The notes under the pieces are model-generated. The model made no database searches. It had not been told where the DNA came from and saw only the letters and a list, made by a program, of their open reading frames with translations. From positions 1,563-65,562 of the forward strand of contig JAKFXN010000004.1 of NCBI GenBank assembly GCA_021731405.1: 64,000 bases of DNA, given 5' to 3'. This stretch comes from Candidatus Parcubacteria bacterium (GTDB lineage Bacteria; Patescibacteriota; Minisyncoccia; Phycocordibacterales; UBA918). A program made the translations under genes and the position numbers. Position 1 is the stretch's first letter; every line of letters begins with the position of its first letter. This document shows, piece after piece, positions 3,592-30,654 of the stretch.

Positions 3592-4278
3592 TTATAATCC
3601 AGTCAGCAATTTTTTCATTAGTTGAATCTCCTCAGTCTGTGTTTCAACTATTGCTTTCGATAAATCAGTAATCTCTTTATGTTCAATATACGGCTGGACA
3701 CTTTGCGCCATCATAACTGCTCCCATATGGTGCATGAGCATGTCTTCCAAGAACACCTTATCAAGTGCTGCTCCACTGAGTTTTGATAGGTCCCGCATCA
3801 TTGGTTCATAATCGTTAGGATCAGCAACATACGCTTCTCCATACCATTCCTGATACCAGCCTTTCATCATGGCGATTTCTTTCTCTTGAGCTACAATGAT
3901 GTCTTCCGCTAACTTCTTAATCTCAGGCGTTGAGCCACCACGAGCAATGACTTCTTTGGCAGTATCAACTGCTTCTTGATGGTGTGGAAGCATACCTTCA
4001 AGAAACTCTCGTTCGCTTTTTACCATCATGGCACTGTGATCCATGCCTCCCATCATACCCATACCAGAATTGGATTCGCTGGTTGGAGAGGTTGGATTAC
4101 CCATAAGTGAACCATCGGGCATACGGTGCATACCAGCCGGTACGTCATCTTGAGTATTCATATCCATGTTCATACCCATTGAATTGTCGGTAGACTTGCT
4201 CGTGCCAAAGCTATACGAAACTGCTCCGATGACTAATACTGCTAATCCTATAATTATTGCAACTGATTGATTTTTCAT
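3592..4278 (-). CDS. DUF305-family periplasmic protein (copper-resistance associated), Met-rich
   Basis: Signal/TM N-terminus. Paired HH motifs (LEGMLPHHQEAV; LEDMLMHHMGAVMM) are typical of DUF305. Met-rich MGMNMDM.. region. There is a paralog at 26126..26788. Confidence 0.7.
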   Translation of the reverse strand: MKNQSVAIIIGLAVLVIGAVSYSFGTSKSTDNSMGMNMDMNTQDDVPAGMHRMPDGSLMGNPTSPTSESNSGMGMMGGMDHSAMMVKSEREFLEGMLPHHQEAVDTAKEVIARGGSTPEIKKLAEDIIVAQEKEIAMMKGWYQEWYGEAYVADPNDYEPMMRDLSKLSGAALDKVFLEDMLMHHMGAVMMAQSVQPYIEHKEITDLSKAIVETQTEEIQLMKKLLTGL

Positions 4279-4292
4279 AAATAATTTATTTG

Positions 4293-4841
4293 TTACATGA
4301 CCATCATGGTCATACTATTAAACATCACGAGCATCCAGAGACACATAAGTATCATAAAACTAGCTTCAATAAGCGTGACGGTTGAAAGCGGCAGCTTAAA
4401 ATACGTTCCGAGGCACACACAGTGCAGTGTCTCTTTTTTCATCATTGACTGGATTGCTCCATACAGACTAGCACTGTATATAAAGAGCGTGATGAGTGTT
4501 GCAGGTAGAATAATGATCTGGAGAATAAAGAGAATACCTAAAGTGATTTCAAGAAACGGATACGACTGGGCATAGGCAATACTTCGTTTCGCTAATGGAT
4601 CGTACTTTGCAAATCCATCCGCAAAACCAACGACATCAGTGAGTTTAATGAGTCCAAAAAATACTAGTACCCAGCCCATGAGGTGAGACATATAGTCGGG
4701 ATACATGTGCCATTGTGCACTATATACAGACACTATGGCAGCTACTATATACAGGAGGGCAATCGGCCAATATGACCAGATAGGTACCTTGGCGGTATTA
4801 TGAACTCGTACTTCGTGATGGTTTGTTACTGTATGTTCCAT
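4293..4841 (-). CDS. integral membrane protein with conserved HCVCLGTYFKLP CxC motif (putative metal-handling; DUF4396/MauE-like)
   Basis: 4-5 TM helices. It is about 60% identical to the paralog at 26800..27348, and both sit between csoR and the DUF305 gene. Confidence 0.6.
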   Translation of the reverse strand: MEHTVTNHHEVRVHNTAKVPIWSYWPIALLYIVAAIVSVYSAQWHMYPDYMSHLMGWVLVFFGLIKLTDVVGFADGFAKYDPLAKRSIAYAQSYPFLEITLGILFILQIIILPATLITLFIYSASLYGAIQSMMKKETLHCVCLGTYFKLPLSTVTLIEASFMILMCLWMLVMFNSMTMMVM

Positions 4842-8196: not shown

Positions 8197-8286
8197 TGGC
8201 GGAGAGAGAGGGATTCGAACCCTCGAGGAGCTTTCACCCCTAACGGTTTTCAAGACCGCCGCCTTCAACCACTCAGCCATCTCTCC
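8197..8286 (-). tRNA. tRNA-Ser(TGA), CCA encoded
   Basis: The reverse complement folds as a cloverleaf: acceptor GGAGAGA/TCTCTCC, anticodon loop CTTGAAA, long variable arm, T-loop GGTTCGAATCC, discriminator G then CCA. A hairpin follows at 8161..8190. Confidence 0.85.
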
Positions 8287-8844: not shown

Positions 8845-9012
8845 GGTATGATGCTCTGCGAAGAAAGTCCGAACGTTTGCTCTACTGTCTTCTCGACTAA
8901 GGTTGGGGGAAAGAAGAGTTTGCTCTACTGTCAAAATTTTATATAAAAATTTTGGCGAGAGCTTCATTCAGAACTCAAATAAAAGCAAAAGCTTTTGCTT
9001 GATTCTTCATTC

Positions 9013-9084
9013 GCTCTCGTAGTTTAATGGATAAAATGCTGGTTTGCGGTACCAGCGCTCCAGGTTCGATTCCTGGCGAGAGCA
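9013..9084 (+). tRNA. tRNA-Arg (anticodon read as GCG)
   Basis: Cloverleaf: acceptor GCTCTCG/CGAGAGC, anticodon stem CTGGT/ACCAG with loop TTGCGGT, T-arm CCAGGTTCGATTCCTGG, discriminator A. No CCA encoded. The anticodon assignment is less certain than the fold. Confidence 0.7.
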
Positions 9085-9266
9085 CAAACGGCCGGCCCAA
9101 ATGCGAAAGCATTTGGGCCGTTGTCGTTTGTAGTTCTCGCCAGGAATCGAAAGACGGAGCCGGGGACCCTCTGGGCAGGCGAGTCGGGGTCGAGAACACT
9201 TAGTAGATTTGGAGCGAAGCGAACAAATGTACTTAGTGATTCGTGACCGAGACTGGCGAGAGCACA
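9085..9266 (+). repeat. tRNA-3'-end-linked structured element, copy E1 (downstream of tRNA-Arg-GCG)
   Basis: Order of parts: a long bulged hairpin at 9085..9131; an antisense copy of the tRNA T-arm/acceptor (agttctcgccaggaatcgaa) at 9132..9151; a module with GAGCGAAGCGAA; and a direct repeat of the tRNA 3' end, CTGGCGAGAGCACA, at 9073..9086 and 9253..9266. Confidence 0.55.
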
Positions 9267-9302
9267 TAAAACAAAACTCACTTCTTAAGAAGTGAGTTTT
9301 GT
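9267..9302. terminator. bidirectional rho-independent terminator
   Basis: AAAACAAAACTCACTTcttaAGAAGTGAGTTTTGTT, between E1 and the convergent gene 9319..10497. Confidence 0.6.
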
Positions 9303-9318
9303 TAAGTAGAGAGTCCTA

Positions 9319-10497
9319 TTAGTTGTCATTGTCGTCATCTCTATCATCGTTACCAACGTTTAACTGTAAACTACCGCGAACATCTAGGAGACGGTCGTCC
9401 TTATCATCAGAGTTACGATCATCATCTCCTGAATCACCATCATCCTTGTCATCGTTAGAATCGTCATCTTGGCCAGCATCGTTTAAGTCGTCTTTGTCAT
9501 CTCGGCTATCGTCGTCAGATTCATTCTCACTTTCTCTTTTGTCTTCAAAATCATCGTCATCAGGTGTCTTGGTGTCGATACGTATTTCACCGTCTTTCTC
9601 TCGGATACGAATTCTGTTTTCGTCATCACGGATTTCGATTCGGCTGTCATCTCCATCATCGTCATTTCTAATTTCTACCCAAGCGTTGGTATCTTGGATA
9701 CGCATCCGCTGTGAGTTCATCTTTACCGGCACTCCATCCAGTAGGGTAGAAAGTTCTGAAAGAAGGGTGTTTCGAGTGTCGTCGTCAAAATTTCCGTTGA
9801 GTACATACCCAAGGGTAATAGCAACGGCCTCGTTTACACGAACTTCATTTTCGCCTGAAATAGTCAGCTTTGACTTGTCTTCTGCCTGACTTCCTCGATC
9901 TTCCACTTCAAAATCTAAATTTGTCTCTACTACCGCTCGGGTCACCCCAAAGCGATTCATAATCTCAAGTACTACTTCTTCTCGTGTGTCAGCATTGGTC
10001 TCAAACACCGTCTTCCGGTCATTGAGTTCCACTTCAACAATAGTAGTGTCTGAAAAGACATCTGCTTCAGCTTCAAAGCTGTTGGTAGTAGACGCTGTAA
10101 TAACGCGATTGTTCTTTTGTACAGATTCGTTCAAAATTGAGCTGAGCTCTAAAAGTCGTTCTGCTGCAAACTGAGCTTCCAGGCGGGTTTTTGTTTCGTC
10201 ACTCGAGAGAGCGAGACGAAGTTCTTCAACCTTCTGTTCAATCACAAATAATGAGTCACCAGGACGAGCTGTCTCTGAAGCCGCTACAATTCCCGTGGTA
10301 CCAAGCATCAACATCAAGGCAAGAGCAATAGGAACCATATGTTTTTTTTGGTTAAATATAAATAAATAAGGCGACAGTGTAGGGGTCGAGTTGCCAACGT
10401 GTGTATCTATTTTATCCCACAGCGCATCTTTCTCCGTTTGCGAAAGCTTCGGAGTGTAACCATCTAGGGTTTCTGAAATTTTATTGTTTTCATCCAT
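9319..10497 (-). CDS. membrane-anchored putative anti-sigma factor with a poly-acidic (D/E-rich) C-terminal region
   Basis: Immediately downstream of, and 2 nt from, the sigma-factor gene. Single TM helix (HMVPIALALMLMLGTTGIVAA). C-terminal ~120 aa are about 50% Asp with IRxxDxxIRI micro-repeats. Confidence 0.45.
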   Translation of the reverse strand: MDENNKISETLDGYTPKLSQTEKDALWDKIDTHVGNSTPTLSPYLFIFNQKKHMVPIALALMLMLGTTGIVAASETARPGDSLFVIEQKVEELRLALSSDETKTRLEAQFAAERLLELSSILNESVQKNNRVITASTTNSFEAEADVFSDTTIVEVELNDRKTVFETNADTREEVVLEIMNRFGVTRAVVETNLDFEVEDRGSQAEDKSKLTISGENEVRVNEAVAITLGYVLNGNFDDDTRNTLLSELSTLLDGVPVKMNSQRMRIQDTNAWVEIRNDDDGDDSRIEIRDDENRIRIREKDGEIRIDTKTPDDDDFEDKRESENESDDDSRDDKDDLNDAGQDDDSNDDKDDGDSGDDDRNSDDKDDRLLDVRGSLQLNVGNDDRDDDNDN

Positions 10498-10498
10498 A

Positions 10499-11035
10499 CT
10501 AGGTTTGATTAGTAAGCGTTGTTGCTAAAGATTTTAAGGCGCGGTGGTGGCGAACTCGTACCGCCGACTCTGTCATATTAAGAAGTGAAGCGATTTCGGG
10601 AAACGTGTACCTTGACCAGTGATGCAGAATTATAATTTCACGCGTGTCCTCCCCCAATGTATCTAGTGCCCGTCTAACACTATCTGCCTCTTCAATTTTG
10701 TCTGGAGGTGAAGCGGTGATTGATTCATCAAAGGCTATTTCCATCTCCATCTTATTGTTTGTAGACATATAGTATTTGGCAAGCTTTCGTTTTGTGATAA
10801 GGAAAACGAAGCTATAAAATTGAGCGTCAGACTGATATGTGAAATTTTGTAATCCGGCGTGTAGGTCAATAAATATCTCTTGCACAATGTCAGTTGCGGT
10901 ATCTCTATCCAAGACACGGTAACTAACATACGCAAAGATTTTATCTACAAGGAGTTCGTAGACAGTTTTAAAGCGCACAGAATACTCTGTGTCTTTTGCT
11001 GTTAGTAACGCTTGTAAGGTAACGTTTTCCGTCAT
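10499..11035 (-). CDS. sigma-70 family (ECF-like) RNA polymerase sigma factor
   Basis: Region 2 plus a region 4 HTH (LHHWSRYTFPEIASLLNMTESAVRVRHHRALKSL). Confidence 0.75.
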   Translation of the reverse strand: MTENVTLQALLTAKDTEYSVRFKTVYELLVDKIFAYVSYRVLDRDTATDIVQEIFIDLHAGLQNFTYQSDAQFYSFVFLITKRKLAKYYMSTNNKMEMEIAFDESITASPPDKIEEADSVRRALDTLGEDTREIIILHHWSRYTFPEIASLLNMTESAVRVRHHRALKSLATTLTNQT

Positions 11036-11146
11036 ATGTTCTTCACTCTACTATACAATGGCAAAAAATCAGCAAAACGTTACATCCTGCCAGAGGGGTA
11101 ATTTTAGGGAGTTTTTGATTAGAAATCCTCATGGTATGCTACCAAT

Positions 11147-11536
11147 ATGTCTCGATTGCTCGGTATAGATTATGGTCATAAACGTGTTGGTTTAGCGGTG
11201 TCGGACGAAACAGGTACGATGGCTTTTCCACACAAAGTCTTTCCAAATGACCAAGCGCTGGTAAAAAACATTTGCACTGTCATACGTGAGCAGAAGGTGG
11301 GTGAAATAGTGGTTGGACATTCGCTTGATAAAGAGGGTAATCCAAACAGCATTCACGATAAAGTGGAGGCTCTCATGCTCGATCTTACGCTTGAAACTGG
11401 ACTTCCTATCCATCTTGAGCCAGAGCAGTACACCACTCAAGCCGCCCTTCGAATCCAAGGGAGGAATGCCATGACTGATGCTGCCGCAGCGACCCTCATC
11501 CTCGATACTTTTATTGTTCGAAATAAGAAAAAATAA
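11147..11536 (+). CDS. ruvX: Holliday-junction resolvase-like RuvX/YqgF
   Basis: MSRLLGIDYGHKRVGLAVSD N-terminal YqgF/RNase H-like signature. Confidence 0.8.
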   Translation: MSRLLGIDYGHKRVGLAVSDETGTMAFPHKVFPNDQALVKNICTVIREQKVGEIVVGHSLDKEGNPNSIHDKVEALMLDLTLETGLPIHLEPEQYTTQAALRIQGRNAMTDAAAATLILDTFIVRNKKK

Positions 11537-11537
11537 C

Positions 11538-11870
11538 ATGGACCAAATTTCATACGACGATTTTGCAAAGCTAGAAATAAAAATTGGAACTATTCTTTCT
11601 GTGGAAGTAGTTCCAGAAGCCGATAAACTATTAAAGCTGAGTGTTGATGTGGGGGAAGAGACCCCAAGACAAATTATTTCTGGGATCAGAACATATTTTG
11701 AAGATCCGCAAGTGCTGGTGGGACGACAGTGCCCATTTCTCACCAATTTAGAACCTAGAACCATTCGGGGTTTTGAAAGTCAGGGTATGATTTTGGCGGC
11801 GAGTTTTGATGAAGAGTTTGCCCTTCTGCATCCACATGTAGCACTACCTTCTGGTTCAAAAGTTAGGTAA
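11538..11870 (+). CDS. stand-alone tRNA-binding domain protein (CsaA/Trbp111/MetRS C-terminal-like OB fold)
   Basis: FAKLEIKIGTILSVEVVPEADKLLKLSVDVGEE..RQIISGI matches the MetRS C-terminal/EMAP tRNA-binding domain. The ATG at 11538 follows the ruvX stop. Confidence 0.75.
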   Translation: MDQISYDDFAKLEIKIGTILSVEVVPEADKLLKLSVDVGEETPRQIISGIRTYFEDPQVLVGRQCPFLTNLEPRTIRGFESQGMILAASFDEEFALLHPHVALPSGSKVR

Positions 11871-11934
11871 CACTATTCGTTTTTAGATGTGAGTTTTGAC
11901 GAGTTTCCGATAATAAACAGCGTATACTATTTGT

Positions 11935-13029
11935 ATGCGGTTATTTAATGCGCTCTCAAAACTCGTGCCTCCGCCAAGTTATATTGCTCTACCAAGCATG
12001 GGGGTGGATATTTCTGACACGTCTTTAAAATACGTTTCTTTTTTGCCGTCACTACGGCCAGAAAAAGTGAAAGTGCTCGACGTGTGGGGTGACATTACTA
12101 TTCCGGAAAATGTTCTCCAACGTGGTGAAATAAAAGATTCAAAAACACTCACGAGTGTACTTAGTGAATTTAAAGATAAAACCAAAGCTGACTTTATTCG
12201 AGTCTCGCTACCGGAAGAGCGAGCGTATATTTTTGAGACTGAGATAAAGAAGAATGTTCCTGTAAAAGAGATTCATAGCTTGCTCGAATTTCGTCTAGAA
12301 GAAAACGTACCAATCTCAGCCCGGGAAGCAATTTTTGATTATGAAATCGTGGCTAGTGATGACAAAAACCAGACTGCTAAAGTAGTGGTAGCTGCGTATC
12401 AGCGCGAAACCATCATGCAGTACTACGAAGCTTGTCGTGCCGCTGCGCTCACCCCACTTTCTTTTGAGGTGGAAGCACAGGCTATGGGAAGAGCGGTGGT
12501 ACCAAACAACATGACCGACACCGTGATGCTTATTGATTTTGGCAAGACGCGAACGGGTGTTGGTATTATAAATAATGGAACCCTCCTGTACACCTCAACC
12601 ATTGATATCGGAGGGGGACAGCTTTCACAAGTACTCAGAAAGACGCTGGGGGATGTCGCGGAGTCAGAATTGACGGCCATTAAAAACACGAGCGGCCTCA
12701 TTCGTGGGGTAGAAGATACTCGTGTCTATGAATCACTCATCTCAATCATTTCAGTCATCAAAGACGAGATTGCGTCACGAATGCAGTATTGGCATTTGAA
12801 AGATAGTAACCGGAATAGTCGTCGAATAAAAAAAATTATTCTCTGTGGCGGTAGTGTAAATCTCAAAGGCTTGCCTGAGTACCTTACCGAGTCGCTTGGT
12901 GTGTCGTGTGTACGAGCTGACGTGTGGGGGAACGCCTTTAGGACCGATCTGGTTGTTCCGCCATTTGAAAAGCGGTACTCATACGGGTACGCGACCGCCA
13001 TTGGTCTTGCCCTCAAAAACACTGTTTAG
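11935..13029 (+). CDS. pilM: type IV pilus assembly protein PilM (actin-like ATPase fold)
   Basis: MLIDFGKTRTGVGIINNGTLLYTSTIDIGGGQLSQ actin-like motifs, followed by pilN/pilO-like genes. Confidence 0.8.
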   Translation: MRLFNALSKLVPPPSYIALPSMGVDISDTSLKYVSFLPSLRPEKVKVLDVWGDITIPENVLQRGEIKDSKTLTSVLSEFKDKTKADFIRVSLPEERAYIFETEIKKNVPVKEIHSLLEFRLEENVPISAREAIFDYEIVASDDKNQTAKVVVAAYQRETIMQYYEACRAAALTPLSFEVEAQAMGRAVVPNNMTDTVMLIDFGKTRTGVGIINNGTLLYTSTIDIGGGQLSQVLRKTLGDVAESELTAIKNTSGLIRGVEDTRVYESLISIISVIKDEIASRMQYWHLKDSNRNSRRIKKIILCGGSVNLKGLPEYLTESLGVSCVRADVWGNAFRTDLVVPPFEKRYSYGYATAIGLALKNTV

Positions 13030-13031
13030 AT

Positions 13032-13571
13032 ATGATTAACCTAATTCCACCAGTTGTACGAAAAAGCATAGTTACCGAATATTGGATACGGGTGGCTTCA
13101 GTCTGGCTTTTTATTGTGGCGGTAGCTGCGACTGCGGTTGTGTTTTTGTCACTCCCTGTCTATGTGCTCGTGTCTTCACAGGTAGATGTGTACGCCCAGT
13201 CGGCGGCGGAAGCAACAGAGCGTGTGACGGAGTATGACCTATCTGCCGGCGCGCTTGTGCGCGCAAACGTGATGGCGCAGAAAGTATTTGAGCTTCGTGA
13301 AGTAGAAAAGTTTTCAACTATTGTTGCCAGTATTGAAGCTCTGCAGGGAAGCGATATCGTGATTGATGGATTTGAGTTTGCGCGACAAGAAAATAGCCTT
13401 GCTCCTGTCCAAGTGACGGGGCGAGCGGCGACTAGACAAGCGTTGTCTGATTTTCGAGAGAGTCTTTTAAGTCAAGAGAGCATTAGTGATGTAATACTAC
13501 CTATTTCTAACCTCGCAAAGGATAGAGACATTCAGTTTTCAGTCTCGATTACCTTTAAAGAACCGCAATAA
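13032..13571 (+). CDS. pilN: type IV pilus assembly protein PilN-like (bitopic)
   Basis: N-terminal TM helix. Position and size match pilN in a pilMNO cluster. Confidence 0.55.
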   Translation: MINLIPPVVRKSIVTEYWIRVASVWLFIVAVAATAVVFLSLPVYVLVSSQVDVYAQSAAEATERVTEYDLSAGALVRANVMAQKVFELREVEKFSTIVASIEALQGSDIVIDGFEFARQENSLAPVQVTGRAATRQALSDFRESLLSQESISDVILPISNLAKDRDIQFSVSITFKEPQ

Positions 13572-13574
13572 TAT

Positions 13575-14093
13575 ATGGGAACAAAAACAAAAAAAATATT
13601 TATAATCTCTGTAATTACCGCTCTGGTAAGTATTGCCGTGCTCGTTTTTTTCTCGTACGAAATCCAAAACCAAGGAGTTCGTCTCGAAGAACAAATTGCC
13701 ATTCTGACCGAGAGTAACACTAAAGAATCAGCTCATGTACGCCTCAATCGCCTTGTGCAGGATACCGAGTCAGAGAGAGCACTTTTAGCCTCTAGTTTTT
13801 TCAAAGATGAAGGCGACAGTATCCTATTCTTGGGTGAAATAGAGACGCTCGCTGGTGCCCTCGGTCTCTCACTCAAGACCGAAGAGCTCGATAAAGTAGT
13901 AGACGAAGAAAAACGTGAATCTATCAGAATGACTTTTTCCTATGATGGAGCAAAAGATACCGTCTTCACGTTTTCAAAATTAATGGAAGTCACCCCGTAT
14001 CATTCACGAGTCGAAAGCCTGTCGTTACGTAAACTCACCAATGAAAATTGGCAGGGAACCCTTACCATACTCATTAGTATCAATTCACTATGA
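13575..14093 (+). CDS. pilO: type IV pilus assembly protein PilO-like
   Basis: N-terminal TM helix and coiled coil. Translationally coupled to pilN. Confidence 0.45.
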   Translation: MGTKTKKIFIISVITALVSIAVLVFFSYEIQNQGVRLEEQIAILTESNTKESAHVRLNRLVQDTESERALLASSFFKDEGDSILFLGEIETLAGALGLSLKTEELDKVVDEEKRESIRMTFSYDGAKDTVFTFSKLMEVTPYHSRVESLSLRKLTNENWQGTLTILISINSL

Positions 14094-14551
14094 TAGAAAA
14101 TGCTTTTGTTAAAAAACTGGTAAAAGGAGTGCTTAGAAATCGAAAGCAGTCGCTTTTAGATAGAAGTATTATGCACCCAACTCGGGAGTGGGTGACTGGT
14201 CTTGCCCTAGGGATTCTTATTTTAACTTTGGGAGTGGCGTGGGGAGTCAGCACCTATATTCAGTTTAGTAATGTATCGGTGAGTGGGGAGGCTGTAGAAG
14301 ACGCTGCAGTTGTGTACCGACAAAGTCTAGTTGAGACTGCTCTGACGGATTTTGAGGCGCGAAAAAAAGAATATGAAACCCTCAAGCAAACGCTTCTTAA
14401 TAAACAGAGAAATGTAGAGACAGTAGCACTACCGCCACAAGTAGAAATAGCTACCACAACTGAAGAGACTGTCACTGAATCAGAACCAGATATGTCTAGC
14501 CCAATACTAGAGGGGAGTGAGTCGAATGAGGGTCCGGAGTTGGGGTTGTAG
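14090..14551 (+). CDS. pilus-cluster-associated bitopic membrane protein (possible PilP analogue)
   Basis: Start overlaps the pilO stop. Single TM helix with an acidic C-terminus. Confidence 0.35.
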   Translation: MIENAFVKKLVKGVLRNRKQSLLDRSIMHPTREWVTGLALGILILTLGVAWGVSTYIQFSNVSVSGEAVEDAAVVYRQSLVETALTDFEARKKEYETLKQTLLNKQRNVETVALPPQVEIATTTEETVTESEPDMSSPILEGSESNEGPELGL

Positions 14552-14601
14552 GTTGTGCTTGGGTTAAAGCTTCTGTGAGGTCAAGTTTCTAAATTCACTG
14601 T

Positions 14602-14800
14602 CCGCGAGGAATGATCCTGCAGTTTCTAATTCGCTACGCTCATAAGAACTGCTGGACGCAGCTCACTAGTTTTCTTTCTAGAAAGGAAAGAAAACATCGC
14701 TCCGCTGGTTCGATTCCTACGGAAAGTGCATTAGCACTTTCCTCGCGGGGGCACGAACAAAAACAGCACACTTAAATAAAGTGTGCTGTTTTTATACTCG
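14602..14800 (-). repeat. tRNA-3'-end-linked structured element, copy E3 (downstream of tRNA-Arg-TCT)
   Basis: Read on the + strand: a direct-repeat copy CCGCGAGGAAT at 14602..14612; a conserved block CGCTACGCTCATAAGAACTGCTGGACGCAGCTCAC; a hairpin GTTTTCTTTC-TAGAAAG-GAAAGAAAAC; CGCTCCGCTGG; a T-loop copy GGTTCGATTCCT + AC + hairpin GGAAAGTGC-atta-GCACTTTCC + CCTCGCGGGGGCA (inverted copy of the tRNA 3' end); and a terminator hairpin at 14759..14794. Confidence 0.55.
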
Positions 14801-14872
14801 TGCCCCCGCGAGGAATCGAACCTCGAATAACGGCTTAGAAGTCCGCAGTTATATCCATTTAACTACAGGGGC
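14801..14872 (-). tRNA. tRNA-Arg(TCT)
   Basis: Reverse complement GCCCCTG..CGGGGGCA. Anticodon loop CTTCTAA, T-arm CGAGGTTCGATTCCTCG, 72 nt. Confidence 0.8.
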
Positions 14873-15046
14873 AAGTGAGGAATAGAATGGAAGCTTGCTT
14901 ACATTCTAGTTCCGAACGCAGCCCTTGTATGCGGAGCATACAGGGGCAAACGTTCAACTTGAAGATTCAGGTCACCTCGCTCGCAAGAATAGCAGAAAAC
15001 AAGAGGAGAGGGAATATATAAAAGAATGCCCCACCAAGGTGGGGCA

Positions 15047-15475
15047 TTAATGCGTGTGTGTTTTGGAGGGGGTTACCTCAAGTCGCAGAATGATGTCTCT
15101 GTAAAAGAAAAAACCTTTGACCTTTCCGCGTTCTGGTGGAGCTTGATAGAATTCTCGCCTCTCTTCGTGTACTAGCATCGAGACTGCTGTTATGAACCCC
15201 TGATCACCAATTCCGTATATATAAGAAGTGGGACTGTCCTCAGTTGAGGTGATGGTAGCTCCGGGAAAAAGTGTGGAGGTCTGTGATTGGAGTTGGCTAA
15301 TTAAGTAGTCAAACTGAACGCAGGGTATCACACAGAAAATGGCTGCCTCCTCTCGATTTCCAGCCATTTTCATGGCTTTTACGGCAAGACCTGCCAGCTC
15401 CTCTAACTTTGGAGCTATGGAGGCTACCAGTTTCTCTACGAGATGGTTGGATACTTCCATACTATAACCCTCCAA
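15047..15475 (-). CDS. hypothetical protein
   Basis: 142-aa ORF followed by a terminator hairpin at about 15017..15043. Confidence 0.4.
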   Translation of the reverse strand: MEGYSMEVSNHLVEKLVASIAPKLEELAGLAVKAMKMAGNREEAAIFCVIPCVQFDYLISQLQSQTSTLFPGATITSTEDSPTSYIYGIGDQGFITAVSMLVHEERREFYQAPPERGKVKGFFFYRDIILRLEVTPSKTHTH

Positions 15476-15582
15476 TTGTTTAAAGAACTAGAAAATAGAG
15501 TACGGCCAAAATAAAAATCTGTAAAGCAAAATTGGTTTTGAAATTTAAAAAGCGGTACCAACGAAGTTAGTACCGCCTTTGG

Positions 15583-16029
15583 TTACAGCAAGTGTCCAAA
15601 ATTGCTTGGTTTGACCTGCATGATTTCAACTCTTGTTCTTGTACAGACAAGAGCTTTTACGAAACCTGGTGAGAGAGGTGTATTCAGAATGACCTCAGTC
15701 GTTTCAGGGAGCATTTTTTCAAAATTTGCAAAAAATGTCTCGGTGGCAACCCCATAAAAAACAGGACTGCTTTTTGGTGATTGAACTTTCTTCCAGTCAC
15801 TTCGTTCCTCGACTCCTTCAATAAGCCTTCTCCAGCTGGAATTCCCTTCAAGGCAAAAAACAATAAATTCTTCAGGCTGGCGATTGTTGCGATGAACCTC
15901 TTCCCAAGCAAGGGTCTGAAGAATTCGTGCTGCTTCGTAGACAACAAGTGCGTGGAAATCTTCTGGATCCAACTCATCTGTAGCCAATGTGTGATTCGTA
16001 GTCATGGTTTGCTCCCAGAACAGTTGCAA
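15583..16029 (-). CDS. hypothetical protein
   Basis: 148-aa ORF with the most protein-like composition of three overlapping frames. Confidence 0.4.
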   Translation of the reverse strand: MQLFWEQTMTTNHTLATDELDPEDFHALVVYEAARILQTLAWEEVHRNNRQPEEFIVFCLEGNSSWRRLIEGVEERSDWKKVQSPKSSPVFYGVATETFFANFEKMLPETTEVILNTPLSPGFVKALVCTRTRVEIMQVKPSNFGHLL

Positions 16030-16134
16030 AAGAACAAATTACCTACGTACAATACTGCTAACGCTGCTTTTGTAAAGAGAAGAGTTATTTATGTGCAAAA
16101 AGTCGTTAGCAGAAGCTAACGACTTTTTGTATTG

Positions 16135-16414
16135 TGTGCGATGAGAGATTAGTCCCACTTTTTCTAATTCCTTAACAGGAACTGTCCACTCATTGGGGTT
16201 TTTCATTCTTCAAAACACCTCAATGAGTCTTGCGAAATGACATTATGGTCATTTCTCACGCTTCGCTCATAAGAACGCTGGACGCGGCTCAACGGTTTCA
16301 ATTTCTGGGAAAGGAAATTGAAACACGTCTCCGCCGTTCAAATCTCTACAAAAGTGCCGCAGGGCACTTTTTCATCGCGCATATAAAAAACCCGCATTGC
16401 GGGCTTTTTATCTG
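16135..16414 (-). repeat. tRNA-3'-end-linked structured element, copy E4 (downstream of tRNA-Val)
   Basis: Read on the + strand: a direct-repeat copy TGTGCGATGAGAGATT at 16135..16150; a long imperfect hairpin; CGCTTCGCTCATAAGAACGCTGGACGCGGCTCAAC (31/34 identical to E3); a hairpin GTTTCAATTTC-TGGGAAAG-GAAATTGAAAC; CGTCTCCGCCG; a T-loop copy TTCAAATCTCT + AC + hairpin AAAAGTGCC-gcag-GGCACTTTT + TCATCGCGCA; and a terminator at 16386..16409. Confidence 0.55.
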
Positions 16415-16487
16415 TGCGCGATGAGAGATTTGAACTCCCGACCTTCTCAGTGTAAATGAGCTGCTCTACCAACTGAGCTAATCGCGC
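16415..16487 (-). tRNA. tRNA-Val(TAC)
   Basis: Reverse complement GCGCGAT..ATCGCGCA. Anticodon loop TTTACAC, T-arm AGGTCGGGAGTTCAAATCTCTC. Confidence 0.85.
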
Positions 16488-16568
16488 ATGCCTACCTAAG
16501 TAGTGCCACACATAGTACCTGTTTTTGAAATTATTTCAATATCAGATACTTGAGGTATACTGACGGTC

Positions 16569-16841
16569 ATGATTGAGATGCAAAGTACTATTATTGGTAA
16601 AGTCCAAGGCGTACGCTACCGAGACTATGTCCAGGCGGCTGCAGGGGAGCTTGGATTGGTGGGGTACGTCAAAAATAACCCTGACGGTACGGTTTTTGTC
16701 TTAGCTCAGGGCGAGCCTGAGATTCTTCGAAACTTTGTGGAATACCTCCATGAGGGTTCTGTCTTAGCGACAGTTGATTCTGTGAGTGTAGACTGGGCTA
16801 CTGCGCAGAAACACTACGATGATTTTTCAGTGGTACGGTAA
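16569..16841 (+). CDS. acyP: acylphosphatase
   Basis: 90 aa with the VQGVRYRDYV and GYVKNNPDGTV acylphosphatase signatures. Confidence 0.8.
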   Translation: MIEMQSTIIGKVQGVRYRDYVQAAAGELGLVGYVKNNPDGTVFVLAQGEPEILRNFVEYLHEGSVLATVDSVSVDWATAQKHYDDFSVVR

Positions 16842-16845
16842 ATAT

Positions 16846-17529
16846 ATGAACACAACCATTCCTACGTGTATCGGCTTTATGATGGACGGCAATCGACGTT
16901 TTGCAAAAGCTTCGGGACTGGATACCTTGTTTGGACATGTGGCAGGGAAGGAGAAATTTTTTGAGGTGGTGACGTGGGTTCACGAAGCAGGTATCAAGCA
17001 CGCCGTGTTTTATGCTTTTTCTACTGAAAATTGGCAGCGTGAACAAGCTGAAGTCGACGGGCTTATGACCATCTTTCTCAATGCCGTAAAAGAATTACAA
17101 CAAAAAAATGACGGTCGGAATATTTCTATCCGGATAATTGGTCGAAGAGAAGATCTTTCGTCTGAAATGCAGGCGGCAGTAACCTTGGTAGAAAAGGAAA
17201 CTGCCTTTGAAAATCTTGATACGACTATTTGGATTGCGCTTTCATATGGTGGACGAGCAGAAATAGTTGACGCAGTTAACAAAGCGGTAGCAGAAGGTTC
17301 CTCTGTCACCGAAGAAAGCTTTAAGGGTCTCATGTGGAGCGCAGGGATGCCTGATCCTGACCTCATTATTCGCACCGCTGGAGATAAGCGCCTTTCAAAC
17401 TTCTTACCGTGGCAGGCTGTTTATAGTGAACTCTTTTTCATAGGTACGTATTGGCCGGCTTTTACAAAAGAGGAATTTACGCGTATCCTCAGTGATTATG
17501 AAAAGCGCGAACGAAGAATTGGAAAATAA
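16846..17529 (+). CDS. uppS: undecaprenyl-diphosphate synthase (cis-isoprenyl transferase)
   Basis: GFMMDGNRRFAK, RTAGDKRLSNFLPWQ. Start placed at the ATG after the acyP stop. Confidence 0.9.
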   Translation: MNTTIPTCIGFMMDGNRRFAKASGLDTLFGHVAGKEKFFEVVTWVHEAGIKHAVFYAFSTENWQREQAEVDGLMTIFLNAVKELQQKNDGRNISIRIIGRREDLSSEMQAAVTLVEKETAFENLDTTIWIALSYGGRAEIVDAVNKAVAEGSSVTEESFKGLMWSAGMPDPDLIIRTAGDKRLSNFLPWQAVYSELFFIGTYWPAFTKEEFTRILSDYEKRERRIGK

Positions 17530-17533
17530 GCCT

Positions 17534-18277
17534 ATGACAGAACCGGCTGTTATATATGAAGACACTTCAGTCTTGGTGGTAGATAAGCCGTACGGGATGC
17601 TCGTGCATGAAGACTGGCATTCGGGCGCAGAGGGGACACTCGTGGAGTGGTTTTTGAAGCGAGTACCCGAAGCGAAGGGAGTTGGGGAAGAAACCACTAA
17701 GCCTGACGGTACTCCGCTTGAACGTTCGGGAGTAGTACATCGACTTGACCGTGAGACTTCGGGAGTGATGATTTTGGCTAAGACCAAAGAAGCACACACC
17801 TTTTTGAAGGCGCAGTTTCATGACCGGCAAGTAAAGAAGGAGTACCGCGCTTTTGTGTATGGACGGATTCATGACAAGTGGGGGACCATTAATCGCCCAA
17901 TTGGCCGCAGTGCCAAAGACTTCAAAAAGCGTTCAGCCGAGCGGGGAGCTAAAGGCACTATGCGTGACGCCGTCACTCACTTAGAGCGGATTGGGGTGGG
18001 GGAATATAACACTGAGCCGTTCTCATACCTAAAACTTATGCCGCAGACTGGTCGTACCCACCAATTGCGCGTTCATTTGCGGGCTATTGACCGTCCCATT
18101 GTCTGTGACCCGCTCTATGGTGAGAAGCAGCTAGCTACCTCAAATAACCTAGGGTTAGACCGTCTGGCGCTCCATGCTCATGTACTCGAAATCGTCCTAC
18201 CCCATGGCCAAACAGAACGATTTATTGCCCCGTTACCACTAGAGTTTGAGCGAGCCGCTGAACGTATTGCAGAGTAG
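17534..18277 (+). CDS. RluA-family pseudouridine synthase
   Basis: HRLDRETSGVMILAKT catalytic Asp motif. The ATG at 17534 is preceded by a GGAAAA RBS. Confidence 0.85.
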   Translation: MTEPAVIYEDTSVLVVDKPYGMLVHEDWHSGAEGTLVEWFLKRVPEAKGVGEETTKPDGTPLERSGVVHRLDRETSGVMILAKTKEAHTFLKAQFHDRQVKKEYRAFVYGRIHDKWGTINRPIGRSAKDFKKRSAERGAKGTMRDAVTHLERIGVGEYNTEPFSYLKLMPQTGRTHQLRVHLRAIDRPIVCDPLYGEKQLATSNNLGLDRLALHAHVLEIVLPHGQTERFIAPLPLEFERAAERIAE

Positions 18278-18295
18278 GGAAGCTTGTGGTAGATT

Positions 18296-18919
18296 ATGGC
18301 ACGCTTAAACGGCCTATTGTTTAGATATTATATTATGAAATCAGCAGTTACTGGGGTGACAATCTCACCCGTCAACATGAACGAACGAAAAGAACTTGGT
18401 ATCAGACCAGGAGATACTATTCGTGTTCACCAAAAAATTCAGGATAAGGGCAAGACTCGTATCCAGATTTTTGAAGGACTTGTACTCGCGCGAAAGCACG
18501 GAGATGAGCCAGGAGCTACTTTTACTGTACGTAAGGTAGCGAGTGGAGTTGGAGTAGAAAAAATCTATCCGCTGTACTCACCACTTATTGATAAGCTTGA
18601 AATTGTTAAACGAGCTAAGGTTCGTCGAGCAAAGCTTTACTACATCCGTGAGAAGGTAGCTCGTGAAATCAAGCGACAAATGCGTCGCATGACACTTGTA
18701 GGATTCTCAACCGAATCAGAAGCAGAGGCAAGTGTACGAGCAGCAGCTGAAGCCAAGGCTCTCGAGGAAGCTGAACTTAAGGAGAAAGAAGCTGTAGCAG
18801 CAAAGGAAGCTGAAATGGCTACTCCAGAAGTAGTGGAGGAGACACCAGCTGAGGTTGTAGCAGAAGCTCCTGTTGAAGAAGTTGCAGCAGAGGCAGAAGC
18901 TGAGGTTAAGAAGGACTAA
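18296..18919 (+). CDS. rplS: 50S ribosomal protein L19 with an ~80-aa Ala/Glu-rich C-terminal extension
   Basis: IRVHQKIQDKGKTRIQIFEGLVLARKHG..KIYPLYSPLIDKLEIVKRAKVRRAKLYYIR is the L19 core. The tail EAEASVRAAAEAKALEEAELKEKEAVAAKEAE.. is low complexity. Confidence 0.85.
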   Translation: MARLNGLLFRYYIMKSAVTGVTISPVNMNERKELGIRPGDTIRVHQKIQDKGKTRIQIFEGLVLARKHGDEPGATFTVRKVASGVGVEKIYPLYSPLIDKLEIVKRAKVRRAKLYYIREKVAREIKRQMRRMTLVGFSTESEAEASVRAAAEAKALEEAELKEKEAVAAKEAEMATPEVVEETPAEVVAEAPVEEVAAEAEAEVKKD

Positions 18920-18931
18920 GGTCTGCAAAAG

Positions 18932-18964
18932 AAAAACCCGCACCCCTGTGCGGGTTTTTCTTTT
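18932..18964. terminator. rho-independent terminator after rplS
   Basis: AAAAACCCGCACccctGTGCGGGTTTTTCTTTT. Confidence 0.7.
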
Positions 18965-19037
18965 AGTATGCGCCATGCCGTAAAACTTGAACAGTTATGG
19001 GTTTTCGTGCATAATAACGGCCTTGAAGTAACGACCT

Positions 19038-19121
19038 GTCCAGGTGGCGAAATTGGTAGACGCACTACCTTGAGGTGGTAGCGCCTTTACGGGCATGCTG
19101 GTTCAAATCCAGTCTTGGACA
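19038..19121 (+). tRNA. tRNA-Leu(GAG)
   Basis: GTCCAGG..CTTGGACA. D-arm TGGCGAAATTGGTAGACGC, anticodon loop TTGAGGT, long variable arm, T-arm TGGTTCAAATCCAG. Confidence 0.8.
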
Positions 19122-19309
19122 CAAATAAAAACTCCCCGAAAGGGAGTTTTTTGTGTCTAAGAAAAATGTGCCCTGCGGCACATTTGCCTGGATTTGAAAA
19201 CCGCAGTGATGCCGAAGGCGAGCGAGGTGGGGTCGAGAGTACTTAGCAGAATCTGAGCTTGCGAAAGATTATGCTTAGTAACTCGTGACCTAATCCAGTC
19301 TTGGACACA
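19122..19309 (+). repeat. tRNA-3'-end-linked structured element, copy E2 (downstream of tRNA-Leu)
   Basis: Terminator hairpin at 19126..19151; hairpin AAATGTGCC-ctgc-GGCACATTT; an antisense T-loop copy GCCTGGATTTGAA; a module GGGGTCGAGAGTACTTAGCAGAATCTGAGCTTGCGAAAG..CTTAGTAACTCGTGACC homologous to E1; and an 18-nt direct repeat AATCCAGTCTTGGACACA at 19106..19123 and 19292..19309. Confidence 0.55.
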
Positions 19310-19389
19310 CTGCAAAAAGCCCCAAATGGGGCTTTTTGTTTTTCTTAAGAGTTTGAAATTCCACGTTCAGTTTTGCGTAGCAATAGAGT

Positions 19390-20286
19390 ATGATACACAC
19401 TATGCGACTCTTACTAGCGCCTTTATTTCTCGTCTTAATACTGACATTTGTTAGTATCCCTTCGTCTGCTTCTGCTGTAACAATGACCTATGAGGAAGGG
19501 AAGGTACATGCTGCGCTCTTATTACAGATTAAGTCACTTTTGGCTGAGGTGGTGCGACTTCAAGAGTTGTTGGCTGAGCAAAAGGAGCGCTCGCTCGCCT
19601 CTGCTTCGTATACTCCTTACGACACGGTCATCTTTCCACTTTCGTTTGAACGAATCTATGAAGTGAAAAACGGGACTATAAAAAATACTAATGGAGAAAC
19701 TGGACAGCGTGTAGTAGATAAACAGCTCTTTGATTTATTTGCAGCCGTGATTGGAGATGATGCGGTTGATGAGTATGTAAAAGAGTGGCGGGTGTTTAAA
19801 AATGACAACAGTGACCTCGGAGCATTTGTGGAATTAATTGCTGGTACAGAATCATGGGTAATTGGAGTAAACCGTGAAAGCTATAGTTCGGGAGATGAAC
19901 AGCTTACGCGCGCCTTTGCAAACCTCTTCACTCACGAGTACGCACATATATTACTATTCAATGAAACTACCTTTGAGACTACCTACAAAAATCTTTTTTG
20001 GACAGCTGAAGACCAAAGGCATTCTGCTCGAGTACAAAATCTTAACAGTCAGTTTTCGGCACTCAGCCGATATTACGACGAGAATCGCAGTCGGTTTGTG
20101 AGCGACTACGCTACCTTAAGTGCTGAGGAAGATATGGCTGAGACCTTTGTCTCGTTTGTACGTGAAGAGAAGCCGCTTGGTACAACTATCCGTGAGAAAA
20201 AGATAAACCAGTTTTATACCTCAAAGGTTTTTGTTGAGGCGCGAGCTGAGCTACGAGCTAACCTTCAAGCTCTGGGAGTTCTCTAA
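19390..20286 (+). CDS. secreted hypothetical protein with an HExxH motif (putative Zn-metallopeptidase-like)
   Basis: Signal peptide. LFTHEYAHILLFNETT contains HEYAH. Confidence 0.4.
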   Translation: MIHTMRLLLAPLFLVLILTFVSIPSSASAVTMTYEEGKVHAALLLQIKSLLAEVVRLQELLAEQKERSLASASYTPYDTVIFPLSFERIYEVKNGTIKNTNGETGQRVVDKQLFDLFAAVIGDDAVDEYVKEWRVFKNDNSDLGAFVELIAGTESWVIGVNRESYSSGDEQLTRAFANLFTHEYAHILLFNETTFETTYKNLFWTAEDQRHSARVQNLNSQFSALSRYYDENRSRFVSDYATLSAEEDMAETFVSFVREEKPLGTTIREKKINQFYTSKVFVEARAELRANLQALGVL

Positions 20287-26788: not shown

Positions 26789-26799
26789 ACAAATTTTTA

Positions 26800-30370: not shown

Positions 30371-30407
30371 TAAATACAGATTAATGCCTTGCTGAGCAAG
30401 GAAAATG

Positions 30408-30580
30408 GGCGGCTATCGGGGTAATATTTCCCTACGGGAACGGTACAGTCTTCATAGCTCACTTCGCCAAAGGCTCGCTCCGCTATATTCAGACTCTTCG
30501 ATTCCCGAACGGAAGCAAAGCAGTTTGCTTCCTTAGCCGTCCTCTACGTAAAAATCCCCCGAAGGGGATTCTTACTACGA
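30408..30580 (-). repeat. tRNA-3'-end-linked structured element, copy E5 (reduced; downstream of tRNA-His)
   Basis: Read on the + strand: a direct-repeat copy GGGCGGCTATCGGG at 30408..30421 (matching 30581..30594 of the tRNA); AGCTCAC..CGCTCCGCT blocks; a T-loop copy TTCGATTCCCGA + AC + hairpin GGAAGCAAAGC-agtt-TGCTTCC + TTAGCCG; and a terminator AAAAATCCCCcgaaGGGGATT at 30550..30571. Confidence 0.5.
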
Positions 30581-30654
30581 GGGCGGCTATCGGGAATCGA
30601 ACCCGAATAGCCGGTACCACAAACCGGAGTAATAACCGTTATACCATAGCCGCC
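30581..30654 (-). tRNA. tRNA-His(GTG) with genome-encoded G-1
   Basis: Reverse complement G-GCGGCTA..TAGCCGC-C. Anticodon loop TTGTGGT, T-arm TCGGGTTCGATTCCCGA, C73 discriminator pairing with G-1. Confidence 0.85.

Follow-up and report, generated by a model that had tools for sequence, protein, structure and literature searches.

The elements and their tRNA genes

The stretch of DNA analysed here, referred to throughout as the window, spans 64,000 nucleotides of Candidatus Parcubacteria bacterium (contig JAKFXN010000004.1, positions 1,563 to 65,562), and the subject of this study is a family of small structured elements that stand directly behind its tRNA genes. ARAGORN and Rfam agreed on six tRNA genes in the window, and five of them have an element 3' of them (E1 to E5). 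An earlier reading from the sequence alone, the original prediction, had counted eight tRNA genes; the two surplus ones were probably the T-loop-like strings GGTTCGATTCC and CGTTCAAATC at 14708 and 16336, which are created by inverted tRNA copies within the elements, on the strand opposite the tRNA. Such opposite-strand tRNA-like strings, together with duplicated tRNA ends, can mislead annotation and assembly. The sixth gene, tRNA-Ser, had been predicted to lack an element, and it does so in the window. The tRNA genes were as follows.

8197-8286, minus strand: tRNA-Ser (ARAGORN, Rfam); no element in the window
9013..9085, plus strand: tRNA-Arg(GCG), host of E1 (ARAGORN; Rfam, 63 bits)
14800..14872, minus strand: tRNA-Arg(TCT), host of E3 (ARAGORN, Rfam)
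16414..16487, minus strand: tRNA-Val(TAC), host of E4 (ARAGORN, Rfam)
19038..19122, plus strand: tRNA-Leu(GAG), host of E2 (ARAGORN, Rfam)
30581..30653, minus strand: tRNA-His(GTG), host of E5 (ARAGORN, Rfam)

Read outward from the tRNA, an element consists of a terminator-like hairpin (T1), an inverted repeat (IR), a folded module, a direct repeat (DR) and, usually, a second terminator (T2), and element size is kept within a tight range of 130-280 nt. The IR is an inverted copy of the tRNA from T54 through the discriminator base plus a few trailer bases, and in E2 to E5 a hairpin, H2, interrupts it precisely where its acceptor portion meets its T-stem portion. The DR is a direct copy of the tRNA 3' end, 11-18 nt long in the window. 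Most of this layout had been anticipated: the predicted coordinates of E1 to E5 were correct to within 1-2 nt, the terminator-like hairpin was present after all five tRNAs, and exact matches to the inverted and direct tRNA 3'-end copies were found in all five elements. The same was true of the GTGCC...GGCAC hairpin with its A:T to T:A swap between E2 and E4, and of the helix that reads GAACAC/GTGATTC in E1 and GAGTAC/GTAACTC in E2. The predicted uniformity of the module held for E1 and E2, which are canonical, but not for E3 to E5, which are divergent members. In the list that follows, R1 is the covariance model of the canonical core, P2, H3 and H4 are the helix and hairpins of that core, and L with a number denotes a sequence compared with the window.

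9093..9120, plus strand: E1 T1, terminator-like hairpin with the 3' flank GTTGTCGTT
9129..9151, plus strand: E1 IR, reverse complement of tRNA positions 54-73 and trailer (17 nt exact, 23 nt with mismatches)
9153..9249, plus strand: E1 core, with P2 and its conserved internal loop, a variable H3 and a long H4 (GGGGTCGAG...CGTGACC), from the fold and R1 (98 bits, E 1e-22)
9253..9266, plus strand: E1 DR, direct tRNA 3'-end copy (14 nt exact), the displaced native end by comparison with relatives; the flank after it is conserved in L146
9267..9304, plus strand: T2 after E1, native bidirectional terminator shared with the convergent gene 9319-10497; an orthologous A[T/A]AAAACAAAAC-hairpin follows the L146 DR
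19127..19151, plus strand: E2 T1, bidirectional terminator hairpin
19152..19198, plus strand: E2 IR (11 + 13 nt), with the acceptor complement at 19152-19162, H2 at 19163-19185 and the T-stem/T-loop complement at 19186-19198
19200..19291, plus strand: E2 core (P2/H3/H4), R1, 91.9 bits
19292..19309, plus strand: E2 DR, 18 nt, followed by terminator T2 at 19312-19339
14602..14799, minus strand: E3 (R1 22.1 bits, E 0.002, on the tRNA-sense strand), with T1 at ~14793-14757, IR1 at 14755-14741, H2 at 14740-14721, IR2 at 14720-14709 (IR 18 nt), a divergent short-H4 module at 14706-14613 and an 11-nt DR at 14612-14602
16133..16413, minus strand: E4 (34 nt at 91% identity to E3), with T1 at ~16409-16385, IR1 at 16383-16372, H2 at 16371-16350, IR2 at 16349-16336 (IR 12 + 14 nt), an E3-like module with an extra domain at 16335-16151 and a DR at 16150-16133 (13 nt exact, 18 nt with one deletion)
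30407..30580, minus strand: E5, of a second ("type 3-like") module type, assigned from a related module at tRNA-Arg(GCG) in L150 and the type 3 survey, with T1 at ~30573-30548, IR1 at 30547-30533, H2 at 30532-30511, IR2 at 30510-30497 (IR 15 + 14 nt), a hairpin and GTA-triloop mini-hairpin at 30496-30421 and a 14-nt DR at 30420-30407

A recurrent family with arms matched to the tRNA

Syntenic loci from eleven related genomes carried the same kind of sequence behind orthologous tRNAs and were the basis of a profile built from the best-conserved part of the module. A 16-mer from this part matched at 120 or more metagenome loci, and the profile search returned 141 module copies in 146 sequences (~1.1 Mb); the observation made in the window thus generalises. 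Ninety-three of these copies had a same-strand tRNA gene no more than 700 nt upstream, mostly at 65-130 nt, and the tRNAs concerned represented ~30 anticodons and 17 amino-acid identities. Transfer-messenger RNA (tmRNA) genes stood upstream of three copies, and 17 were too near a contig end for assignment.

Among 69 tRNA-element pairs, the longest exact match of the IR had a median of 12 nt with the cognate tRNA and 6 nt with non-cognate tRNAs (95th percentile 9 nt). The DR was bimodal, being 9-20 nt long in about half of the pairs and absent from the others, with a control median of 5 nt; where present, it began 0-3 nt past the last bases of the module, GTGACC, and ended within a few nucleotides of the tRNA's discriminator base. 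The resemblance of IR and DR to the cognate tRNA is far beyond chance, and the elements are a genuine recurrent family that is widespread. Most tRNA genes of some Patescibacteria genomes have an element, five of six in the window and all five in the L003 locus, and the family would on that account be a major overlooked component of these tiny genomes.

The family had been put forward as undescribed, and it remained so in the sources searched. Rfam 15 matched only the tRNAs, with no match over the modules at E up to 5 (window 8900-19500) or up to 0.1 (L138, L108, L082), and BLAST of phage and plasmid collections gave no match to the element. A scan of viral contigs with the 16-mer yielded 13 matches, none of them with a module, and these are chance matches. 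Nothing relevant was found in the literature searched, coverage of which was incomplete, and an earlier description is still conceivable; the only paper on Patescibacteria tRNAs among the results (PMC13011429) reports group I introns in anticodon loops, which are unrelated to the elements.

Fold, covariation and module types

The canonical core occupies 96 model positions and is formed by helix P2 and hairpin H4. P2 comprises two 3-bp segments around a near-invariant internal loop (5' G(G/C)A, 3' GA), found in 72 of 81 parsed copies, and is capped by the variable hairpin H3. H4 is a long hairpin whose tip reads GA, then 2-4 bp usually closed by a GNA triloop, then GAA. Where both the IR and the DR exist, they close the core as a third helix, producing a three-way junction.

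A covariance model of the kind that had been proposed as a check was built (R1), and it scored E1 and E2 as canonical at 98 and 92 bits. From 138 matches to it (133 distinct), in an alignment that was fitted to the model and so favours structure, 95.0% of cells were paired (76.1% after shuffling, 27-39% in a slid control), 26 of 28 pairs had changes on both sides (17.0 shuffled, 14-19 slid), and the covariation score was 0.484 (0.158 shuffled, 0.04-0.075 slid). An independent MAFFT alignment of 26 sequences showed compensation at 17 of the 28 pairs. The conserved covarying fold is real, and the family has genuine compensatory base changes, as the original prediction had held. R1 also provides a direct handle for genome-wide censuses. 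Hammerhead, twister and other small ribozyme cores were considered and dropped, with no consensus found by eye and no Rfam match.

E3 was a weak match to R1 and has a short H4, as do L040 and L101. E4 resembles E3, and its extra domain was also found at tRNA-Arg(TCT) in L003. The type 3 module consists of a hairpin followed by (T/G)ACTGAACNTGTAAN; this second segment contains a 6-bp GTA-triloop mini-hairpin that covaries with the start of the DR, which is longer in this type. A module closely related to that of E5 was found behind tRNA-Arg(GCG) in L150, where its arms match that tRNA. A second H4 lacking P2 directly followed the first in L108:1-330, L082:990-1075 and L118:846-913, indicating that the H4 module is able to duplicate alone.

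Strand and nature of the folded species

The conserved blocks quoted in the original prediction belonged to the strand antisense to the tRNA, and it favoured a small RNA transcribed towards the tRNA, with a 3' end that would mimic the T-arm and acceptor strand. The antisense IR does read as T-loop, T-stem 3' strand and acceptor 3' strand followed by a bidirectional terminator, as such an RNA would. However, all 73 distinct cores folded better in the tRNA sense, with mean energies of -41.4 (sense) versus -31.5 kcal/mol (antisense) under RNA parameters and -21.5 versus -16.8 under DNA parameters. The folds of these cores contained 143 G.U pairs in sense and 37 in antisense, and one G.U that 123 of 133 copies retain, at the base of H4, would turn into a mismatched A.C on the opposite strand. 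Purine-rich tandem-GA loops and GNA triloops are conserved on the sense strand and turn into pyrimidine loops on the antisense strand, and R1 gave antisense copies 20-24 bits, versus 92-98 bits in sense. These observations favoured a structure on the tRNA-sense strand and made a convergent RNA very improbable.

Conservation of the G.U pairs suggested that the folded species is RNA. There was also a hint of single-stranded DNA (ssDNA) in the loops: triloops closed 45 of 75 H4 tips (37 of them GNA) and 35 of 76 H3 hairpins, whereas T1 terminators mostly had tetraloops (47 of 67). C(GNA)G triloops are the distinguishing feature of DNA mini-hairpins of unusual stability, d(GCGAAGC) being one example.

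Insertion, displacement and loss in related genomes

Patchy occupancy of orthologous tRNAs was evident among the syntenic relatives: at the extremes, three tRNAs in L002 had no element and all five in L003 had one, and tRNA-Ser, empty in the window, was filled in L011 and L012. An exact-protein look-up for strain-level relatives of the window gave no match for one protein and only a 1.4-kb contig for the other. Nearer relatives, including L146, L149 and L150, were reached via the DUF5673 protein that adjoins tRNA-Arg(GCG); L146 shares ~80-87% nucleotide identity with the window, and its DUF5673 protein 96%. The tRNA-Arg(GCG) site was found in the following states.

Window: canonical (type A) element E1
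L146: type 3 element
L149: type 3 element, DR, window-type T1 and first 13 nt of the canonical IR
L150: E5-like element, DR, last 16 nt of the canonical H4 and old DR
L151/153/154: type 3 element between perfect 51-nt repeats (tRNA end and whole terminator)
L147 (98% identical to L146): no element

The remnant in L149 is an older E1-like copy that was displaced and truncated, and loss of the older copy from an L149-like state, by recombination between DRs, would give the L146 state. Behind the DR, the window and L146 share the flank A[T/A]AAAACAAAAC-hairpin, whereas the sequence directly 3' of the tRNA differs, indicating that the DR and T2 are native and that the proximal end arrived with the element. 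Two further findings concern T1. The 3' flank of E1 T1 is conserved as GTTGCCGTT in elements of L084 (Ala), L095 (Gln) and L118 (Glu), making it common to elements of one H3 type at Arg, Ala, Gln and Glu tRNAs, and in L108 a complete T1-IR-module-DR unit is repeated in tandem. T1 therefore belongs to the element.

At tRNA-Val in L146 the E4 module is gone; the gap falls exactly between two 8-nt repeats, AAAAAG(T/C)G, that the window contains, and T1, an IR stub and a decayed DR remain. Arrays were found as well. Five perfectly identical 136-nt units stand head to tail at L117:4050-4729, and two identical type 3 units lie 142 nt apart behind tRNA-Met at L117:7153-7295; these arrays are compatible with multimer integration or very recent unequal exchange. 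Two different elements occur in series in L003, L006 and L008. Serial insertion, displacement and loss are thus shown in the relatives, alongside the architecture of the elements, the specificity of their arms for the cognate tRNA, and the conserved fold with its strand. The original prediction had described a miniature, mobile-like element at the T-loop and acceptor segments, which agreed with the presence and absence, type replacement, tandem arrays and displaced copies seen here. Orthologous sites without an element, which it had proposed to look for, were found, but a clean isogenic pair of empty and filled sites was not among the loci compared.

Two observations on the ends of these tRNA genes were made along the way. 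Although L146 and L147 are 98% identical, a 0.8-kb segment with tRNA-Ser, the DUF5673 gene and tRNA-Arg(GCG) is inverted between L147:1-3332 and L146:9824-13322; the two tRNA genes have their 3' ends facing outward, and the alignment breakpoints lie only a few nucleotides from these ends; the inverted genome has no element at either. The encoded CCA varied between orthologous tRNAs: tRNA-Arg(GCG) has it in L003 and lacks it in the window, tRNA-Ser has it in the window and has lost it in L146, and further differences were noted for L003, L004 and L012 (tRNA-Arg, tRNA-Val, tRNA-Ser). This variation fits replacement of tRNA 3' ends by incoming DNA, and no consistent link was seen between CCA encoding and element type.

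Probable integration at tRNA 3' ends

On balance, we lean towards the elements being non-autonomous, site-specific integrative elements that home to the 3' ends of tRNA and tmRNA genes. From the anatomy and the comparative states we infer a mobile unit made of a copy of tRNA positions ~57-73, T1, the IR and the module, equivalent to a small circle, which would recombine with a chromosomal tRNA gene inside the segment from the T-loop to the 3' end. The tRNA would be rebuilt with the element's own 3' end and terminator, and the original tRNA 3' end with its native terminator would be left at the far side as the DR. Later insertions at the same tRNA would push earlier copies outward, where they would be truncated or lost by recombination between DRs. 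In single-stranded form, as ssDNA or RNA, the IR may pair with the tRNA-end copy and trailer, restoring a duplex like the gene's 3' end that is capped by T1 and could serve as a folded attachment site. The three-way junction (the P2 loop G(G/C)A|GA and H4) may be what a recombinase or replication protein, encoded elsewhere and acting in trans, takes hold of; alternatively, P2 and H4 could act as a replication origin.

Among known systems, the elements work most like the integrative elements that target tRNA and tmRNA genes and the non-autonomous derivatives of these, such as genomic islands and cis-mobilisable elements. Both are inserted in the 3' part of the gene, restore it with an element-borne copy, leave the displaced 3' end as a direct repeat and reuse the site to form tandem arrays. 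Unlike those, the elements described here are only 130-280 nt long, have no integrase, carry their own terminator, use one folded core for ~30 tRNA targets and contain the target once more in inverted form. Integrases that target tRNA genes classically leave direct repeats of the tRNA 3' end that begin in the T-loop, and the elements might accordingly be decayed scars of integrase-borne islands or prophages reduced to their attachment-site regions, a form of the att-site remnant that the original prediction had offered as an alternative. Such an origin would account for the DRs, which bound the insert with the native terminator after the distal repeat, and real islands do occupy such sites, in L005 (TOTE and Fic genes) and in L146 (serine recombinase and restriction-modification genes by tRNA-Ser). 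It would not account for one ~96-nt covarying core behind ~30 different tRNAs or for the tight size range, as copies decaying independently would not arrive at one shared fold, nor at an IR, and no integrase gene or remnant was found at the tRNA-proximal end (~100 loci, 2.5 kb, selected open reading frames (ORFs)). We therefore considered island scars improbable.

A second likeness, by anatomy only, is to attP(+) of the CTX phage, other Xer-exploiting elements and integron attC sites, in which two inverted site copies with a loop between them can fold into a duplex imitating the target, conservation lies in the structure and not in the sequence, and one strand is preferred. In the elements, the tRNA end with T1 and the IR, and the IR with the module and DR, likewise fold as long stems, and the sense strand is favoured in 73 of 73 cores, also under DNA parameters; their target is the tRNA 3' end, however, and not dif or attI. 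Miniature inverted-repeat transposable elements (MITEs) and the REP/BIME, Correia, BOX and RUP families are likewise short, non-coding, hairpin-rich, modular and multicopy, and are targets of insertion sequences (ISs) of the IS110 family. Those families have fixed terminal repeats, target duplications that are short and fixed or missing, and no tie to tRNAs, whereas the arms of the elements are rewritten for each tRNA and their orientation is always that of the tRNA. Family-wide terminal inverted repeats of an autonomous IS were not found, since the IR and DR arms differ at every tRNA and the only IS detected, of the IS110 family, has unrelated ends and interrupts elements; nor was there a fixed short target duplication, the direct repeats ranging from none to 11-25 nt, and 51 nt in L151. 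Among the ORFs examined, no Y1/HUH gene was seen, as would be expected of REP/BIME elements with a RAYT transposase.

Group I introns with guide and trans-splicing layouts offer a parallel of another kind, in that the order of a segment pairing with the downstream copy, a segment pairing with the T-loop, the core and the 3' copy recalls the P10/P1 guide, ribozyme and 3' exon. The core of the elements is only ~96 nt of two helices without catalytic elements, no Rfam Intron_gpI match was obtained, and the upstream tRNA is already complete. Two further ideas were rejected. A retroviral-style primer-binding role for the IR did not fit, as the IR pairs with genomic trailer past the discriminator and has no CCA complement where CCA is unencoded, and a fixed 4-nt CGAA duplication from insertion into a palindromic TTCGAA T-loop failed because T-loops of the TTCAAAT type give none.

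Several points weigh against integration as proposed. No recombinase, transposase or reverse transcriptase was recurrent within 2.5 kb of the modules at ~100 loci, none was found among 20 selected ORFs of the window (~180-360 aa), and no free circular form was seen. A clean isogenic pair of empty and filled sites was lacking, and the closest case, L146 and L147, is confounded by the inversion. A classical tyrosine integrase does not need a distant IR and would not be expected to act on ~30 tRNA target sequences, and the model does not explain how the two arms are fitted to a different tRNA once a module family moves to another target. The E1 orthologues of the window and L004 are 89% identical over 328 nt between unalignable flanks and differ by compensatory changes, with inner P2 pairs GCC/GGC versus GTC/GAC and an H4 tip longer by one pair. 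This conservation points to purifying selection in place, which is not required of a purely selfish element. One T-loop substitution in L004 is common to the tRNA, IR and DR, and the old IR of the truncated L149 remnant does not carry the tRNA's 7:66 change; together with the conservation of E1, this indicated that intact elements are under selection or that the three copies are homogenised by conversion. Mean similarity was 0.695 between copies on the same contig and 0.674 between contigs, which is not a significant difference, and a recent intragenomic burst was not supported, same-contig copies being as divergent as those between contigs. Nearest neighbours were on the same contig nine times, versus 0.7 expected.

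The main rival to integration is a tRNA-like RNA that is useful to the host, or a mobile element that works through such an RNA. A host function as a structured sense RNA is compatible with a mobile origin. Such an RNA would be transcribed by read-through of T1, and its IR:DR arms would form a 12-20 bp "minihelix" modelled on the adjacent tRNA's acceptor and T stems. It would be excised and finished like a tRNA, by RNase P, RNase Z and the CCA-adding enzyme, and its three-way junction would serve for protein binding or have a part in tRNA metabolism. Agreement with this view comes from the sense-strand fold advantage and its G.U pairs, among them the one at the base of H4, as well as from the strong covariation, the purine-rich internal loop, the compensatory evolution of E1 between the window and L004, the T-loop variant carried together in tRNA, IR and DR of L004, and the DR end close to the discriminator base. 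Against it, T1, usually a good intrinsic terminator, stands between the tRNA and the element, no promoter-like site was found inside the elements, and about half of the canonical copies have no DR and hence no closing helix. Occupancy ranges from none to all tRNAs in close relatives, and arrays, of up to five identical units, are common, as are truncated copies. GNA triloops predominate in module hairpins and tetraloops in T1 terminators, and for a minihelix of a generic kind there would be no need to resemble the tRNA next to it. Patchiness, arrays, truncations, copies without a DR, the strong T1 and the missing internal promoters made a purely host function less likely, and we considered the host RNA rather unlikely overall.

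A tRNA-like RNA would also find parallels in the tRNA-like domain of tmRNA, in YrlA/Y RNA and in viral tRNA-like structures, with which the elements would share an acceptor-plus-T-stem helix (IR:DR) that ends at the discriminator base and a large insertion at the T-loop position. They differ in having no Rfam match and no T-loop or D-loop mimic, half of them have no such helix, and where it exists it copies the neighbouring tRNA. ARAGORN and the Rfam tRNA and tmRNA models matched only genuine genes, and IR:DR gave only a stem.

A tentative and more far-reaching possibility is that the elements are a new class of "arm-programmed" mobile minicircle of ssDNA or RNA, in which the arms, and not the preference of a protein, choose the tRNA gene. 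Other arms would then send the same folded core to any tRNA or tmRNA. If the circle were RNA, tRNA-processing enzymes would cut read-through transcripts after the discriminator base, at the tRNA and at the DR, and the IR would bring both ends together in a nicked duplex ready to be ligated. This would yield a circular RNA the size of a viroid, which would go back into DNA at tRNA genes. One fold with target-matched arms for ~30 tRNAs suggested targeting by base-pairing or homology, a mechanism that to our knowledge is not known for miniature elements and that could be of interest as a programmable integration system.

Other DNA at tRNA 3' ends

The integration reading would explain why defence islands, IS insertions and rearrangements concentrate in the 3' flanks of tRNA genes in these genomes. 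An older module copy in L002 and L010 is separated from the tRNA by DNA with ORFs, and other cargo flanked by tRNA-end repeats at element sites indicated an active integration process at tRNA 3' ends. A 4-kb island at L005:114-3990 encodes a TOTE conflict-system primase-helicase (709 aa) and a Fic/DOC protein (350 aa) and lies between tRNA-Arg(GCG) and a displaced old unit of tRNA fragment, T1, IR, module and DR; a Pfam scan of its genes found no integrase. A further Fic gene adjoins the tmRNA-linked element in L104. On the 3' side of tRNA-Ser, L146:1-9800 carries an island that encodes a large serine recombinase together with a ParB-N6 methylase, an Eco57I-like enzyme and a PLD-like protein; its far end lies outside the DNA compared.

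An IS of the IS110 family, 1352 bp long, was present at L117:4851-6202 and L138:527-1878, in copies 99.8% identical. It encodes a 360-aa DEDD transposase followed by ~235 nt of 3' non-coding sequence, in an IS1111-like layout. Both copies sit at the junction of IR and module in type 3 elements, behind tRNA-Asp and tRNA-Ser, with insertion points GGGATTCG^ATGAAAAGG and GGAATCG^ACGAAAAG. The elements could be derivatives of IS110/IS1111, or guide modules like bridge- or seek-RNA cassettes without a recombinase: the transposase gene stands between tRNA and module at these two loci, and both systems combine a conserved RNA-like scaffold with target-matching segments. We found such descent extremely improbable. 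The IS has its own ends and has merely inserted into pre-existing elements, and ~100 other element loci have no such gene. Bridge RNAs of IS621 have short guide loops, unlike the IR and DR, which are 11-25 nt long and mutually complementary. No homology of the IS 3' non-coding RNA to the module was noticed by eye, and no test of it was made. Elements of the IS110/IS1111 group are known to target repeated DNA of this kind. The 3' non-coding region of the IS holds TATAGACGAA, which equals the IS right end plus target flank and is as expected of an RNA guide.

An unclassified protein of 220-245 aa, with an N-terminal helix-turn-helix (HTH) and a conserved G(L/A)(A/M)LYW(A/G)EG motif reminiscent of LAGLIDADG enzymes, was encoded at L038:651-1388, L045:3540-4220, L100:2060-2746, L139:608-1336 and L137:11525-12193. 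Its gene is immediately upstream of a tRNA gene at four loci and ~0.9 kb upstream in L137, and the protein had no confident Pfam, NCBIfam or PDB match. As candidate mobilisers, the recurrent neighbour proteins were set aside, being only housekeeping synteny, Fic genes, a YraN-like nuclease and this HTH protein.

Other genes of the window

The genes of the window include PilM/N/O, RuvX, UppS, an RluD-like gene and L19, and together with the best-matching genomes they assign the window to Candidatus Kaiserbacteria/Paceibacteria within the Patescibacteria. Two orphan ORFs (142 and 148 aa, at 15047-16029), which had no Pfam or NCBIfam match, occupy the spacer between E4 and tRNA-Arg(TCT). In relatives the spacer from tRNA-Val to tRNA-Arg varies from 170 nt (L012) to ~4 kb (L004, L006), and this variation indicated a hotspot of variable genes. 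A pair of genes for a DUF305 and a MauE-like protein is present twice, at 3592-4841 and 26126-27348, and one copy adjoins multicopper oxidase and ferric-reductase-like genes, surroundings that suggest a metal-resistance region.

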